Source of the DNA: a virus
Taxonomy: Duplodnaviria > Heunggongvirae > Uroviricota > Caudoviricetes
IMG/VR virus record: IMGVR_UViG_2693429560_000008
DNA: 5,058 nucleotides
Strand: one strand, 5' to 3'
In this document: positions 1 through 5,058 of the stretch, piece after piece
How positions within the stretch are numbered: position 1 is the stretch's first letter
How the letters are laid out: each line of letters starts with the position of its first letter
Program-made: the position numbers and the translations under genes
Notes under the pieces: model-generated
Databases searched by the model: none
What the model was told of the DNA's origin: nothing
Seen by the model: only the letters and a program-made list of their open reading frames with translations

Positions 1-25
1 GGGAAAAATATCATCAGATGGCTGC

Positions 26-214
26 TTAAAAAAAGAACAAATGGTAGTGTCCGCTATTGCCAGTACACCTCAGGGTATAAGGGGTTATGGCCACCGGACT
101 ACCAAACGGCTGCCAGCCCTCTTTCAGTTTATGTGTCAGCTTTTCCGCAAGATCTGACGGCGGCGCCGCCCTGACAACATCATAGTGTTTAAATGCCATG
201 GTTCTTTCCACCAT
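26..214 (-). CDS. small prophage protein, possibly DUF1737-like
   Basis: Minus-strand ORF from the track. The second in-frame ATG (197-199) follows a GGAAAG RBS-like sequence, so the true start is probably 199 (MAFKHYDVV..., 57 aa). The stretch LAEKLTHKLKEGWQPFG resembles the short phage DUF1737 family from memory only. Confidence 0.45.
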   Translation of the reverse strand: MVERTMAFKHYDVVRAAPPSDLAEKLTHKLKEGWQPFGSPVAITPYTLRCTGNSGHYHLFFF

Positions 215-851: not shown

Positions 852-1046
852 GAGAGTGGCGCTATGTGCCATTGCATGGTGCCGGGTGCCTCCCGGTGAA
901 TTCAGTACCAGCACCTGAATCCGCGATTATCCCATATACCTACTCGCTGATTGCCCCTCCGCACAGGGGGATTCACCATGCCAGTTTCTTTTAACAAACT
1001 CCCCGCAAAACAGACAACTGTCAACCGTCTGAATTGTGAGACATTT

Positions 1047-1072
1047 AAAAAAAAGGCCCGCAAAAGCGAGCC
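1047..1072 (-). terminator. intrinsic terminator just downstream of the copy-1 tRNA cluster
   Basis: On the minus strand: stem GGCUCGC, loop UUUU, stem GCGGGCC (one G-U pair), followed by eight U. Lies in the 36-bp copy-1-specific spacer; absent from copy 2. Confidence 0.5.
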
Positions 1073-1086
1073 AGGGAAAATAAGTG

Positions 1087-1163
1087 TGGCGCGTTGTACT
1101 GGATTCGAACCAGTGACCGATTGCTTAGAAGGCAATTGCTCTGTCCGGCTGAGCTAACAACGC
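1087..1163 (-). tRNA. argO: tRNA-Arg, anticodon TCT (copy 1)
   Basis: 77-nt cloverleaf folded by hand from the reverse complement: acceptor GCGTTGT/ACAACGC, T-loop TTCGAAT, anticodon loop CTTCTAA, encoded CCA. Symbol assigned from the Stx-phage ileZ-argN-argO order, from memory. Confidence 0.85.
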
Positions 1164-1176
1164 ATGATGCAGATAA

Positions 1177-1253
1177 TGGACCGCCATCGGGGACTTGAAC
1201 CCCGCGCAGCCAGCTTCGAAGGCTGGCGCTCTTTCCTGATGAGCTAATGGCGG
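1177..1253 (-). tRNA. argN: tRNA-Arg, anticodon TCG (copy 1)
   Basis: 77-nt cloverleaf: acceptor CCGCCAT/ATGGCGG, D-stem GCTC/GAGC, anticodon stem CCAGC/GCTGG with loop CTTCGAA, T-loop TTCAAGT, encoded CCA. Unusual C1-G72 first pair. Symbol from cluster order, less certain. Confidence 0.75.
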
Positions 1254-1260
1254 TATGTGA

Positions 1261-1336
1261 TGGTGGCCCTTGCTGGATTTGAACCAGCGACCTGGCGATT
1301 ATGAGTCGCTCGCTCTCACCACTGAGCTAAAGGGCC
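1261..1336 (-). tRNA. ileZ: tRNA-Ile2, anticodon CAT (lysidine type, reads AUA), copy 1
   Basis: 76-nt cloverleaf GGCCCTTTAGCTCAGTGG...CTCATAA...GGTTCAAATCC...AAGGGCCACCA, very close to E. coli ileX-type tRNA-Ile2 as recalled. Anticodon loop CTCATAA. Confidence 0.85.
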
Positions 1337-1376
1337 GGGAGCCGCATAATAACGACGCGTAATTAATTCTTCAATA

Positions 1377-1743: not shown

Positions 1744-1766
1744 AGAAAAATAATTCTGCTCTATGG

Positions 1767-1793
1767 TTTACATTCAAAAATATCATTTATACT
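1767..1793 (+). promoter_or_regulatory. putative promoter for the 111-aa ORF, copy 2
   Basis: Identical to 393-419: TTTACA, 15 nt, TATACT. Confidence 0.3.
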
Positions 1794-1833
1794 TTTCAGA
1801 ACATCACCAGCAAGGCATAAACAAGGAAACTAA

Positions 1834-2169
1834 ATGAAGTGGATTGTGATTGATACAGTTATCCAGCCATCATGCGGAATATCTTTTTCAGTCATATGGA
1901 GTAAAATAAAATTAATAATCTGGTATCAATCGGATGCTTTCTTACCTCCTGAAAGTATATTTACACTGACTCACACAGGCATCATGCTCAATAACAAAGT
2001 GCTACCTGTAACCATTTACAACGTAGTACCATTCAATAAAACATTCTGGAATTCAATCAAAAATAGCCAGGAATGCCCTACAAATACAGATAACGTATTG
2101 AATGAATGCTTTAATAACCGTTGCACTCTGCAAATATGTCCTTATGGACTAAAACAACAAAGTCCATAA
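1834..2169 (+). CDS. hypothetical protein, 111 aa, AT-rich cargo gene (copy 2)
   Basis: Identical to the ORF at 460-795. Confidence 0.5.
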
Positions 2170-2188
2170 GGAGTTTACTCACATCTGA

Positions 2189-2225
2189 CAAAATCAATAT
2201 AAACAGCCCCTCCGGAGAGGGGCTG
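2189..2225 (-). terminator. intrinsic terminator-like hairpin, copy 2
   Basis: Identical to 815-851. Confidence 0.4.
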
Positions 2226-2449
2226 GAGAGTGGCGCTATGTGCCATTGCATGGTGCCGGGTGCCTCCCGGTGAATTCAGTACCAGCACCTGAATCCGCGA
2301 TTATCCCATATACCTACTCGCTGATTGCCCCTCCGCACAGGGGGATTCACCATGCCAGTTTCTTTTAACAAACTCCCCGCAAACCAGACAACAGTCAACC
2401 GCCTGAATTGTGAAGTATTTAAAAATTTCTCCCGCTAACTGATACCCGG

Positions 2450-2536
2450 CTAACAGTCTGGCGTTTTCTTTTTCAGCAACGGGAAAGCAACAACCACCAC
2501 ACCCGCCACCAGCACACCGTCAGCCAGCACTGACAT
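2450..2536 (-). CDS. possible 28-aa hydrophobic peptide
   Basis: Hand translation of the minus strand gives ATG...TAG: MSVLADGVLVAGVVVVAFPLLKKKTPDC, one hydrophobic stretch then KKK. No convincing RBS; could be a chance ORF in GC-rich low-complexity sequence. Confidence 0.15.
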   Translation of the reverse strand: MSVLADGVLVAGVVVVAFPLLKKKTPDC

Positions 2537-2616
2537 TATCCGGCTGCTGCAATGCCATTCACAAAAACAGTAAGCAATCACTTTTTACCGTAACAGGTGA
2601 TAATCCAGATATGTAT

Positions 2617-2970
2617 CTACCCCAGATGAGTAATCCGAAGTTCATCCATACCACAGGTCCTGGCTATTCTGTTGTACTCCTGAACAAGAGCAAATAATTC
2701 TGAATTAGCAACCATGAACTCATCGCAAACCCTCTGTATAGCATCACTATTCAGAATAATAACGTCTCTTCCCGAAAGACGATCAGGAGTACAGAACAAA
2801 ACTGTCAAACGGCTGAAGGCCTTTGCTCGTGCTGCATTGACTATATCAATACGCTGCCTAAGGATGAAACACCCCGACGCCTCATCAATATTCACTCTAC
2901 CCACACCATATGAATGATAAATATTTAATGCTGAAAAAACCATTAGACCGTATAACAAACACTCAATCAA
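2617..2970 (-). CDS. hypothetical protein, 108-117 aa, copy-2-specific cargo
   Basis: Minus-strand ORF from the track, which begins at a TTG. The first ATG is at 2941-2943 (MVFSALNIYHSYG...). Weak RBS. Lies directly downstream of the tRNA cluster in the slot where Stx phages carry stx, but has no resemblance to Stx A or B. Confidence 0.4.
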   Translation of the reverse strand: MIECLLYGLMVFSALNIYHSYGVGRVNIDEASGCFILRQRIDIVNAARAKAFSRLTVLFCTPDRLSGRDVIILNSDAIQRVCDEFMVANSELFALVQEYNRIARTCGMDELRITHLG

Positions 2971-3080
2971 TACTTAACAGAACTTTTATTTTTGACAAAC
3001 ATAAAATATTTTCAACAATATCCTGAGCCAGGTATATTTCAGTATAAGGCTCTGCCGGAAGGAATCTGGAAGAATGAATA

Positions 3081-3157
3081 TGGCGCGCTGTACTGGATTC
3101 GAACCAGTGACCGATTGCTTAGAAGGCAATTGCTCTGTCCGGCTGAGCTAACAACGC
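3081..3157 (-). tRNA. argO: tRNA-Arg, anticodon TCT (copy 2)
   Basis: Same as 1087-1163 except tRNA position 69 is G instead of A, turning the U4-A69 pair into a U4-G69 wobble. Confidence 0.85.
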
Positions 3158-3170
3158 ATGATGCAGATAA

Positions 3171-3247
3171 TGGACCGCCATCGGGGACTTGAACCCCGCG
3201 CAGCCAGCTTCGAAGGCTGGCGCTCTTTCCTGATGAGCTAATGGCGG
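3171..3247 (-). tRNA. argN: tRNA-Arg, anticodon TCG (copy 2)
   Basis: Identical to 1177-1253. Confidence 0.75.
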
Positions 3248-3254
3248 TATGTGA

Positions 3255-3330
3255 TGGTGGCCCTTGCTGGATTTGAACCAGCGACCTGGCGATTATGAGT
3301 CGCTCGCTCTCACCACTGAGCTAAAGGGCC
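3255..3330 (-). tRNA. ileZ: tRNA-Ile2, anticodon CAT (copy 2)
   Basis: Identical to 1261-1336. Confidence 0.85.
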
Positions 3331-3370
3331 GGGAGCCGCATAATAACGACGCGTAATTAATTCTTCAATA

Positions 3371-4429
3371 TCATCCGTTCTGGCTGACTAAATCCTGTAC
3401 TTCCCGAACCGTCTGCTCAAAACGTTCAGTCTCCAGCTCAACGCCAATTGCACGACGCCCGAGCGCCAGTGCCGCTTTCACTGTCGAACCCAACCCCATG
3501 AAAAAATCTGCAATCAGGTCACCCGGACGACTGCTAGCGCTGATTATCTGCTGCAGCATTTCTGCCGGTTTTTCGCACGGATGTTTCCCGGGATAGAACT
3601 GCACCGGTTTATGCGTCCACACATCGGTATACGGCACCTGCACCGTCACGCCAAAATACCGCCGCAGATGTTTATATTCACTCAGCAGCTCCGCATACTG
3701 CCGGTTCAGTGAGGTATACGTATCCACCAGCTGGTGGTGGAGCTTTTCCAGTTCACCACGCCGATGCTTCTCTTCTGCCACCCGGGCAAACAGCGCCTGT
3801 AATTTCAGATAATCGCTTTCATTCGGCAACTGCCACTGACCGGCACTGAACCAGTGCGACACCATGTTTTTCTTTCCTGTGGCATCTGCAATCTGTTTTG
3901 CCGTTATCCCCAGGGCAGCTCGCGCATCACGAAAGTAAGAAATCAGCGGGGCCATCACATGCTGTTTCAGTGCACTGCCCTTCGCCGCATACCCGGCATC
4001 TTTCGGACGATACGGCCCCTGATAATGTTCCGCGAACAGAATGCGCTCTGTGGCGGGGAAATACGCCCGCAGGCTTTCCTTGTTGCATCCGTTCCAGCGT
4101 CCGGACGGCTTCGCCCAGATAATATGGTTCAGCACACTGAAGCGTTCACGCATCATGATTTCGATATCAGATGCCAGGCGATGACCACAGAACAGGTAAA
4201 GACTTCCGGCAGGTTTCAGCACCCGCCAGAACTGCGCCAGACACTGGTCCAGCCACTTCAGGTAATCATCGTCGCCCTTCCACTGGTTATCCCAGCCCTC
4301 AGGCTTCACTTTAAAGTACGGCGGGTCCGTGACTATCAGGTCAACAGAATTTTCGGGTAACGACCGGATAAATTCCAGGCAGTCGGCGTTGATTAACTCA
4401 CAACTGGATATTTTTACAGTATTAAGCAT
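3371..4429 (-). CDS. N6-adenine DNA methyltransferase, beta-class, apparently orphan
   Basis: 352-aa ORF. Catalytic motif DPPY near the N-terminus (LIVTDPPY) and AdoMet-binding motif DFFMGLGST near the C-terminus; that motif order defines beta-class amino-methyltransferases. No restriction endonuclease partner in the window. Confidence 0.9.
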   Translation of the reverse strand: MLNTVKISSCELINADCLEFIRSLPENSVDLIVTDPPYFKVKPEGWDNQWKGDDDYLKWLDQCLAQFWRVLKPAGSLYLFCGHRLASDIEIMMRERFSVLNHIIWAKPSGRWNGCNKESLRAYFPATERILFAEHYQGPYRPKDAGYAAKGSALKQHVMAPLISYFRDARAALGITAKQIADATGKKNMVSHWFSAGQWQLPNESDYLKLQALFARVAEEKHRRGELEKLHHQLVDTYTSLNRQYAELLSEYKHLRRYFGVTVQVPYTDVWTHKPVQFYPGKHPCEKPAEMLQQIISASSRPGDLIADFFMGLGSTVKAALALGRRAIGVELETERFEQTVREVQDLVSQNG

Positions 4430-4461
4430 GGATCATTAAGCCTGTCTCTGATAGGCTCATT

Positions 4462-4551
4462 CTGCTTTTGCGCAAAGCAGTGGGCCTGAGGTTTGCTTGT
4501 GAACCCAACGCATGAGCAGATGGCTGGTGGGTGCCCCTAACACCCACCAGC
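4462..4551. promoter_or_regulatory. inverted repeats in the leader upstream of the methyltransferase gene
   Basis: Perfect 11-bp inverted repeat GCTGGTGGGTG / CACCCACCAGC (4523-4533, 4541-4551) with a 7-nt spacer, and a 7-bp inverted repeat CTGCTTT / AAAGCAG (4462-4468, 4474-4480). Neither is followed by a U-tract on either strand. Confidence 0.3.
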
Positions 4552-4565
4552 CGCCCATTTACCAC

Positions 4566-4593
4566 AAATAAAAAAGCCTTCACTGCGGAAGGC
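4566..4593 (-). terminator. intrinsic terminator after the 65-aa gene
   Basis: Minus strand: stem GCCUUC, loop CGCAGU, stem GAAGGC, followed by UUUUUUAUUU. The stem overlaps the stop codon of the 65-aa ORF. Confidence 0.5.
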
Positions 4594-4777
4594 GTCTGTA
4601 ACAACCGAACTGATAGTCTGCCAGACCCGCCATAACCAGCTGGGTCAGTATTAACTGGCAGCGTTCGCGTGAAAGGTAAGTATTCTGCGCTATCTCCCCG
4701 ACTGTCGCCGGTTCGGTAACGCTTAATTCATTAAACACCACTCTGGCGGTTTCTGTCATATCCTGCTGTTTTAGCAT
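4580..4777 (-). CDS. small putative DNA-binding protein, 65 aa
   Basis: AGGA sits 6 nt upstream of the ATG. The pattern TVGEIAQNTYLSRERCQLILTQLVMAGL is helix-turn-helix-like and weakly resembles FaeA/PapI-type winged-helix regulators, from memory. Confidence 0.5.
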   Translation of the reverse strand: MLKQQDMTETARVVFNELSVTEPATVGEIAQNTYLSRERCQLILTQLVMAGLADYQFGCYRRLPQ

Positions 4778-4896
4778 GTCTTTTCCTTTTCCGGTTAACG
4801 TGACACACCAATAACTCTTGTCGAAAAAGCCAGCAAGCTGAAAGACAGGTATTCACCGCCACCAGCGCGTTTACTGTACTGACGCGATTTCAGTCA

Positions 4897-4920
4897 TAAA
4901 AAACCCGCTCGGCGGCGGGT
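4897..4920 (-). terminator. tR'-like intrinsic terminator
   Basis: Minus strand: stem ACCCGC, loop CGCCGA, stem GCGGGU, followed by UUUUUU. About 65 nt downstream of the putative pR'. Confidence 0.55.
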
Positions 4921-4968
4921 TGTAGAAACTCTTCTAACGTCAGGCATAAAACGCCCATCGTTATGACG

Positions 4969-4996
4969 AATTTACCACAGATTCCGGAAAAATCAA
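4969..4996 (-). promoter_or_regulatory. pR'-like late promoter
   Basis: Minus strand: -35 TTGATT (plus 4991-4996), 16-nt spacer, extended -10 TGgTAAATT (plus 4969-4977). It sits between the end of the upstream ORF and the tR'-like terminator, the layout expected for a lambdoid pR'/tR' unit. Confidence 0.4.
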
Positions 4997-5001
4997 CCTT
5001 G

Positions 5002-5058
5002 TTACCTAGTTACCTTTTTTAACTGCCGCTCAGCCCATGCTTCTTCAATATCAAACCG
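5002..5058 (-). CDS. 3' end of an upstream minus-strand gene, possibly the Q antiterminator (partial)
   Basis: Two minus-strand frames stay open to the window edge: one ends ...RFDIEEAWAERQLKKVTR with stop at 5002-5004, the other ...GLILKKHGLSGS with stop at 5019-5021. The frame cannot be resolved. Identity is inferred only from position upstream of the pR'-like promoter. Confidence 0.2.
   Translation of the reverse strand, partial: RFDIEEAWAERQLKKVTR

Follow-up and report, generated by a model that had tools for sequence, protein, structure and literature searches.

The tRNA cluster that stands twice in the window, the whole 5,058-nucleotide stretch of DNA analysed here, is the ileZ-argN-argO module already known from lambdoid (Stx-type) prophages in Escherichia and Shigella. 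The tandem arrangement itself is probably a product of scaffolding or gap closing and not a genomic duplication, a reading to which we assign a probability of roughly 0.8. Most likely a draft scaffold here runs two times through a pair of prophage loci that lie apart in one genome. The real genome would most likely carry clusters on two prophages, one with the full trio and A69 in its argO, the other with ileZ, a pseudo-argN and an argO with G69.

Identity of the tRNA genes and their cluster

The tRNA genes were called with ARAGORN, and their cloverleaves were scored against the Rfam covariance model RF00005, which has a gathering score of 29 bits. With ARAGORN, the minus strand of the window yields six tRNAs, two each of Ile2-CAT, Arg-TCG and Arg-TCT. 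All six score above the gathering score of RF00005 (58-72.5 bits). The two methods agree on the gene content that the original prediction had given for both copies, and the covariance model also accepts the fold of Arg-TCG, with TCG as its anticodon. Rfam matches below the gathering score (Plastid-ycf2, Trp_leader, P26 and AaHKsRNA20) were set aside as chance or tRNA antisense. The tRNA genes and their immediate surroundings are as follows.

1045-1072, minus strand: intrinsic terminator, GGCTCGC-TTTT-GCGGGCC followed by T8, directly 3' of Arg-TCT copy 1
1087-1163, minus strand: tRNA-Arg (TCT) of the argO type, copy 1, with U4-A69 (ARAGORN; RF00005, 70.1 bits; 77/77 with annotated argO)
1177-1253, minus strand: tRNA-Arg (TCG) of the argN type, copy 1 (ARAGORN; RF00005; 73/77 with annotated argN)
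1261-1336, minus strand: tRNA-Ile2 (CAT), copy 1, same sequence as copy 2 (ARAGORN; RF00005)
1346-1374, minus strand: sigma-70-like promoter, TTGAAG-17-TATTAT, copy 1 (sequence scan)
1377-1743: 3' fragment of the methylase gene that is intact at 3371-4429
3081-3157, minus strand: tRNA-Arg (TCT) of the argO type, copy 2, the U4-G69 wobble allele (ARAGORN; RF00005, 68.0 bits)
3171-3247, minus strand: tRNA-Arg (TCG) of the argN type, copy 2, with C1-G72, U73 and an encoded CCA (ARAGORN; RF00005, 58 bits)
3255-3330, minus strand: tRNA-Ile2 (CAT) of the ileZ type, copy 2 (ARAGORN; RF00005, 72.5 bits; 76/76 with annotated ileZ)
3340-3368, minus strand: the same promoter site, copy 2 (sequence scan)
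3371-4429, minus strand: intact N6/N4 DNA methyltransferase of 352 aa, upstream of the tRNAs (Pfam PF01555, E = 7.9e-42)

Both CAT tRNAs carry the ARAGORN label Met(cat). Their sequence assigns them to the Ile2 type and not to elongator or initiator Met tRNAs. Identity to K-12 ileX is 68/76, with C4-G69 and C5-G68 preserved and a compensatory change from C6-G67 to U6-A67. The pairs C4-G69 and C5-G68 are TilS determinants of tRNA-Ile2. The PGAP annotation of E. coli genomes likewise gives this tRNA as tRNA-Ile. For Arg-TCG, the D loop AUCAGGAAA puts A at position 20, and the anticodon reads U34-C35-G36. Both A20 of the D loop and C35 are identity elements of E. coli ArgRS. The U73 of Arg-TCG departs from the usual A/G73.

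The annotated genes of the Stx2-converting phage Stx2a_1447 (AP012536.1) match the window trio at 76/76 (ileZ), 73/77 (argN) and 77/77 (argO, copy 1), and in that phage they sit between a DNA methylase gene and stx2A. Of 120 loci in which tRNAs were called, 101 show the order Ile2(CAT)-Arg(TCG)-Arg(TCT) on one strand; the 120 comprise the window, two loci of E. coli and those retrieved from IMG/VR with the anticodon arm of Arg-TCG as query. A search of 5,426 complete E. coli genomes matched the cluster in 3,061 and at least 80% of it in 2,578, and one genome can carry it at as many as 13 places. In E. coli FORC_069 and 55989 alike, antiterminator Q is followed by a 65-aa ORF, a DNA methyltransferase, the tRNA trio, a cargo slot of variable content, an esterase, a holin and a lysozyme. 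The window fits this late-region position through its methylase gene and through its right end, which can be aligned with the 3' portion of Q (Antiterm) in one of the two parental loci described below (locus 1, L138).

The cluster also looks like a self-contained promoter-tRNA-terminator cassette within the late region. In both copies the -10 hexamer ends 9 nt ahead of the Ile tRNA. The TTG of the -35 element and the TATTAT of the -10 element are unchanged in 24 distinct 55-nt upstream variants from related loci; the spacer and all sequence upstream of the -35 element vary in these variants, and some contexts are without the methylase gene. Across the window, promoter-like sites stand at chance level (9 found against 7.8 expected). 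A 'pS tRNA promoter' has been named in the q-stx2 region (PMC2858043). The terminator of copy 1 is also found 3' of Arg-TCT in more than 60 related IMG/VR loci. Expression of the cassette might proceed both from its own promoter and through Q-dependent read-through.

Why the trio appears twice

The window contains two pairs of repeats and a single novel junction, and its sequence can be assigned without mismatch to two prophage loci. The elements of this arrangement are listed here, with the parental segments last.

370-1040: repeat A1, with homologues of iraM and of the STnc100 sRNA
1744-2414: repeat A2, the same as A1 but for 3 sites near the right end
1074-1743: repeat B1, with the 3' third of the methylase gene and the tRNA trio
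3068-3737: repeat B2, the second copy of the B1 content
Between A and B: 33 bp in unit 1 (u) and 653 bp in unit 2 (U, with DUF3927 and ORF117)
1743-1744: novel junction that joins an internal methylase site to the region upstream of iraM, so that B1 abuts A2
1-1009: locus 2 (L126), 100%
880-1743: locus 1 (L138), 100%
1744-3157: locus 2 (L126), 100%
3089-5058: locus 1 (L138), 100%

The IraM homologue is listed under PF11183 (PmrD) in a precomputed table and named IraM by PGAP; our own scan against Pfam gave no match for it.

Loci 1 and 2 belong to one same complete genome and were compared with the window base by base. The parental loci were located in complete genomes by exact-protein look-ups. 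Locus 1 runs Q, 65-aa ORF, methylase, tRNA trio, terminator, STnc100, esterase and holin. Locus 2 runs Q, ileZ, pseudo-argN, argO (G69), ORF117, DUF3927, STnc100, iraM, a DUF1737 stump and an IS. In HE616528.1, which we take to be Shigella sonnei 53G, the two stand at 1.31 and 2.10 Mb; in CP104423.1 they stand at 2.53 and 1.86 Mb. Their separation is 0.67-0.78 Mb. They have two stretches in common, 880-1009 (130 bp, STnc100) and 3089-3157 (69 bp, Arg-TCT). The window is a perfect mosaic that passes from locus 2 to locus 1 twice, with the second switch inside Arg-TCT. Positions 1-73 match several IS ends at 100%. The ends of the window, an IS end on one side and the 3' part of Q on the other, are typical of repeat-bounded contigs.

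A sister draft contig, FUBV01000231.1 (5,183 bp), was found by looking up the 118-aa truncated-methylase ORF that the junction creates, and it has the topology of the window. Two differences separate it from the window and no others. The sister contig has 'NC' inserted exactly at 1743|1744, and it carries locus-2 sequence, including the pseudo-argN, over 3158-3249. It therefore switches loci in the Ile tRNA, whereas the window switches in Arg-TCT. The locus-2 pseudo-argN preserves the acceptor and T-arm halves around a scrambled anticodon arm, and it received no call from either ARAGORN or Rfam. The junction-made ORF is present on three contigs in the whole collection, in which the intact methylase and IraM proteins each occur in more than 4,000 blocks. 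One of these three contigs (L134) was rejected as a carrier of the same junction; its 118-aa ORF stems from a different methylase truncation. A separate draft locus (L080) has two clusters 2.3 kb apart and likewise an N beside the first cluster.

Searches for the junction elsewhere were negative. The 5,426 complete E. coli genomes gave no record across 1743|1744, every match covering one half alone, and the junction has no exact match in the 144 retrieved loci, complete-genome loci included. Exact-string searches of GTDB representatives, IMG/VR and JGI metagenomes also came back empty, negatives that are weak for Shigella because GTDB folds Shigella into E. coli; the look-ups of exact proteins described above weigh more heavily. 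The junction was thus not found contiguous in independent assemblies or closed genomes.

We suggest that the path of the draft scaffold changed locus inside the 130-bp shared STnc100 and the 69-bp shared Arg-TCT, and that two chimeric contigs, which overlapped, were then joined end to end at 1743|1744. A de Bruijn misjoin at this point was rejected, as the two sides share at most 2-4 nt. With no shared k-mer there, the join is better put down to scaffolding or gap filling, which the single N of the sister contig fits; the exact assembler step behind the join is our inference.

The best placed of the alternatives, though an unlikely one, is a genuine tandem segmental duplication of about 1.4-2 kb in this isolate or sublineage, of a segment that begins upstream of iraM and ends within the methylase gene. 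It would have arisen by illegitimate recombination at 1743|1744, followed by exchange of the middle part (u against U, A69 against G69) with another prophage, and the genome would have two iraM genes and, side by side, two tRNA trios. Direct repeats that end exactly at one novel junction are what a true tandem duplication would leave, and the methylase is preserved at full length with merely its 3' fragment doubled, as expected. At 1743|1744 the window reads through without an N, and its topology is shared by at least two or three deposited assemblies, at least one of them another contig. However, each segment matches one or other of the two distant loci at 100%, and a tandem duplication would call for at least three separate recombination events. 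A 5-kb short-read contig is also unlikely to resolve two perfect repeat pairs of about 640-650 bp correctly. We doubt a tandem duplication because of this perfect mosaic, the N at the join in the sister contig, its different switch point and the absence of the junction from the complete genomes and all retrieved complete-genome loci.

Considerably less probable again is a mixed case, in which one inter-locus join is real (e.g., a hybrid prophage formed by recombination in the shared STnc100 or tRNA) and the tandem repeat is an assembly product. The identical 130-bp and 69-bp stretches would offer sites for such exchange. Exchanges between prophages of this kind do occur in nature, because tRNA-u-STnc100 and tRNA-U-STnc100-iraM architectures are seen in many natural combinations. 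Yet the roughly 19 retrieved complete-genome loci all keep the two parental arrangements, and the displaced switch in the sister contig points to path ambiguity over a fixed recombinant. As an observation that speaks against an artefact, the arrangement of methylase, trio, U (DUF3927/ORF117) and iraM is real in E. coli O104:H4-type genomes, which makes half of the mosaic natural.

An origin in scaffolding or gap closing carries a practical caution. Short contigs of IS- and prophage-rich genomes (Shigella, EHEC) can show distant paralogous loci as a 'tandem duplication'. In the window, the artefact would even restore an intact tRNA where the real locus 2 has a pseudogene.

Variation in the Arg tRNAs and their presumed decoding role

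An ungapped comparison of 1087-1743 with 3081-3737 (offset 1994) leaves a single difference, 1094 T against 3088 C. The site is position 69 of Arg-TCT: copy 1 has the pair U4-A69 and copy 2 the pair U4-G69, both as originally predicted. G69 lowers the tRNA-model score by about 2 bits (68.0 against 70.1), and the predicted acceptor helix stays intact with a G-U wobble. Among about 100 Arg-TCT copies tallied, the G69 allele is found in 5, FORC_069 counted, and the A69 sequence of copy 1 is the commonest variant (51 copies). Arg-TCT copy 2 matches its counterpart in locus 2 at 100%, and E. coli FORC_069 has the same allele. A mutation after duplication was ruled out as the source of G69, which is native to locus 2 and found in other prophages. 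The A69/G69 contrast is best described as an allelic difference between the argO genes of two prophage loci, with G69 as a pre-existing minority allele.

Arg-TCG reads CCGCCAU...AUGGCGG-U-CCA, with C1-G72, discriminator U73 and an encoded CCA. The C1-G72 pair noted as an oddity of this tRNA is present, but it is not a local peculiarity, being fixed across the argN family. A(-1), C1, G72 and U73 are invariant in about 118 argN-type copies, and positions without variation permit no covariation test. Some members of the family have stem mismatches or have lost the encoded CCA. An identical 23-nt D-stem/anticodon arm occurs at 44 loci among species-representative genomes, 43 of which ARAGORN calls as tRNA-Arg(UCG). 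The first base of these 43 is G in 39, T in one (probably an offset call) and C in three. The G-starting tRNA-Arg(UCG) sequences printed in full end in A/G73 and CCA. The three sequences with C1-G72 and U73 are argN-type copies, from Escherichia albertii and two MAG contigs. The combination of C1-G72 and U73 is a fixed signature of an argN-type phage tRNA family.

In E. coli, C1-G72 is otherwise characteristic of tRNA-Pro. One may speculate that A(-1) pairs with U73 and so creates a potential 8-bp acceptor helix, as in tRNA-His. That the argN-type tRNA-Arg(UCG) is matured or recognised non-canonically by way of A(-1), C1-G72, U73 and CCA seems improbable. If this were true, RNase P cleavage could shift, or the tRNA could be orthogonal to a tRNA-targeting factor of the host or of phage defence, and the phage would supply a CGA/CGG reader of which the host has none. 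Whether A(-1), C1-G72 and U73 affect the processing or identity of argN is the remaining curiosity.

The module probably supplies tRNAs for the host-rare codons AUA, AGA/AGG and CGA/CGG. A rare-codon supplement is the standard hypothesis for the ileZ-argN-argO cluster. The cargo genes use the relevant codons and are compatible with this idea: the iraM homologue has 34.5% GC with ATA in 6 of 13 Ile codons, and ORF117 has 3 ATA, 3 AGA, 3 AGG, 1 CGA and 1 CGG, with 11 Arg codons. The original interpretation holds only in part. Its anticodons are correct and the general rare-codon idea agrees with local codon use, but the specific proposal that doubling the tRNAs raises decoding capacity fails, as the local doubling rests on a probable assembly artefact. 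Multi-copy tRNA dosage in these genomes comes from multiple prophages and not from local duplication. Very improbable is an adaptive doubling of the cluster that raises AUA, AGA and CGA decoding in AT-rich cargo, with the acceptor-stem change as post-duplication divergence: the cargo ORFs iraM and ORF117 are AT-rich with rare codons and genomes do carry several clusters on different prophages, but the duplication is probably not real, G69 already exists as an allele of locus 2 and other prophages, iraM lies on the opposite strand as part of a separate locus, and a published comparison of lambdoid phages with and without tRNA genes saw no difference in their codon adaptation (PMC4631060).

Comparison with Stx phages and cellular tRNAs

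As established features of Stx-type prophages, the cluster, its promoter, its location and the role presumed for it are already known, and the biological weight of the present observations is accordingly small. The arm of 23 nt that argN has in common with cellular tRNA-Arg(UCG) of other bacteria is joined to different acceptor ends, starting mostly with G in the cellular tRNAs and with C1 in argN. The window Arg-TCT has the anticodon loop, D arm and T loop of K-12 argU, with a whole-gene identity of merely 56/77. The E. coli host decodes CGA with an inosine-containing ACG tRNA. To our knowledge, K-12 has no tRNA-Arg(UCG), and argN would therefore be an addition to the host set and not a spare copy.

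The original description of 933W was reportedly given by Plunkett et al. in 1999. Three tRNA genes are present in 933W, Min27, VT2-Sakai and Stx2 phages II and 86, and two in phiP27 (PMC4631060). Prophages are also described in which the trio is down to two annotated tRNA genes, one of them termed a pseudo-tRNA (PMC13641118). The window trio has the anticodons, order, strand and upstream promoter motif of the Stx-phage cluster (933W, VT2-Sakai, Stx2a_1447), and it likewise follows Q and a DNA methylase and precedes the moron/lysis region. The spacers of the trio are 7 and 13 nt in the window against 9 and 13 nt in AP012536.1, so that the difference from the Stx-phage cluster falls on the Ile-Arg spacer. 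A 2-bp indel at this spacer position separates O157 clades (PMC2858043). Copy 2 of the window differs further by its minority G69. Stx phages have stx downstream of the cluster, whereas the window has none and its slot is filled by a terminator and STnc100 (locus-1 type) or by ORF117, DUF3927, STnc100 and iraM (locus-2 type).

The tRNA module and its flanking elements

Features around the Ile2-Arg-Arg tRNA trio (ileZ-argN-argO) in the window:

1346-1374 and 3340-3368, minus strand: sigma-70-like promoter, TTGAAG-17-TATTAT
821-1010 and 2195-2384, minus strand: STnc100 (RF02076) sRNA, full-length Rfam matches
460-795 and 1834-2169, plus strand: 111-aa ORF, iraM homologue
2617-2970, minus strand: 117-aa ORF between the tRNAs and DUF3927, in a cargo slot of locus-2 type
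26-214, minus strand: 62-aa DUF1737 ORF adjoining an IS end

The end of the -10 hexamer of the promoter lies 9 nt upstream of the Ile tRNA, and the TTG of the -35 element and the TATTAT of the -10 element are unchanged in all 24 of 24 different upstream contexts. The site is probably what PMC2858043 calls the 'pS tRNA promoter'. Just downstream of the module, the STnc100 copies score 133.6 and 132.4 bits in Rfam against a gathering score of 47, and each is closed by a strong hairpin-plus-T terminator (851 to 830 and 2225 to 2204). Within a 130-bp part of this element the two parental prophage loci show no differences, and this identical stretch is one of the two sites where the assembly path changes locus.

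The 111-aa ORF is labeled anti-adapter protein IraM by PGAP in related E. coli genomes. A precomputed table assigns it PF11183 (PmrD); a Pfam scan of the ORF returned no family at E<=0.01. Its GC content is 34.5% and ATA accounts for 6 of its 13 Ile codons. The iraM homologue is prophage-borne and occupies the slot held by stx in Stx phages. The 117-aa ORF, without a Pfam family, makes heavy use of rare codons for Arg and Ile (three each of AGA, AGG and ATA), and among the complete-genome loci it is annotated only in L127, there as a 108-aa gene.

Interrupted genes and probable draft assembly joins

At the left end, window positions 1-73 match IS-element ends at 100% in several places in complete-genome loci. 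The adjoining DUF1737 ORF looks like the N-terminal remainder, severed by the IS, of a 617-aa DUF1737-SASA esterase that is intact in locus 1.

Another draft-derived record, L080 (IMGVR_UViG_2671180758_000015), carries two tRNA clusters at 9756-12604 with 2.3 kb between them, in the order CAT-(pseudo)-TCT with the G69 allele, then CAT-TCG-TCT. Its single N, at position 10085, lies immediately past the first cluster. Scaffold joins over these prophage tRNA regions seem to recur in draft assemblies.

The unrelated draft contig L134 (CXCK01000401.1, 1511 bp) has the same methylase gene broken near the equivalent of window position 3775. About 800 bp at this break have no match to the window and are possibly an IS. 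The interruption independently yields the same 118-aa C-terminal ORF.

Decay and possible 8-bp acceptor helix of the Arg-TCG tRNA

Two further features concern Arg-TCG (argN):

L126 7325-7424 (complete-genome locus 2) and L133 1890-1989 (sister draft contig): decayed argN, the central one of the three tRNAs in the second prophage locus
1254/1180 and 3248/3174, window: positions -1/73 of Arg-TCG

The decayed argN keeps its acceptor stem, the first part of the D arm and the 3' T arm, with the anticodon arm scrambled or replaced; neither ARAGORN nor Rfam calls a tRNA there in L126 or L133. The argN at the corresponding place in the window, 3171-3247, is intact only because the assembly path is already on locus 1 at this point. 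A(-1) and U73 of Arg-TCG are complementary and show no variation in approximately 118 family copies. Because both positions are invariant, covariation evidence for the pair is absent in either direction. Given their complementarity, the Arg-TCG precursor could form an 8-bp acceptor helix via A(-1)-U73, an arrangement recalling the G-1:C73 pair of tRNA-His.
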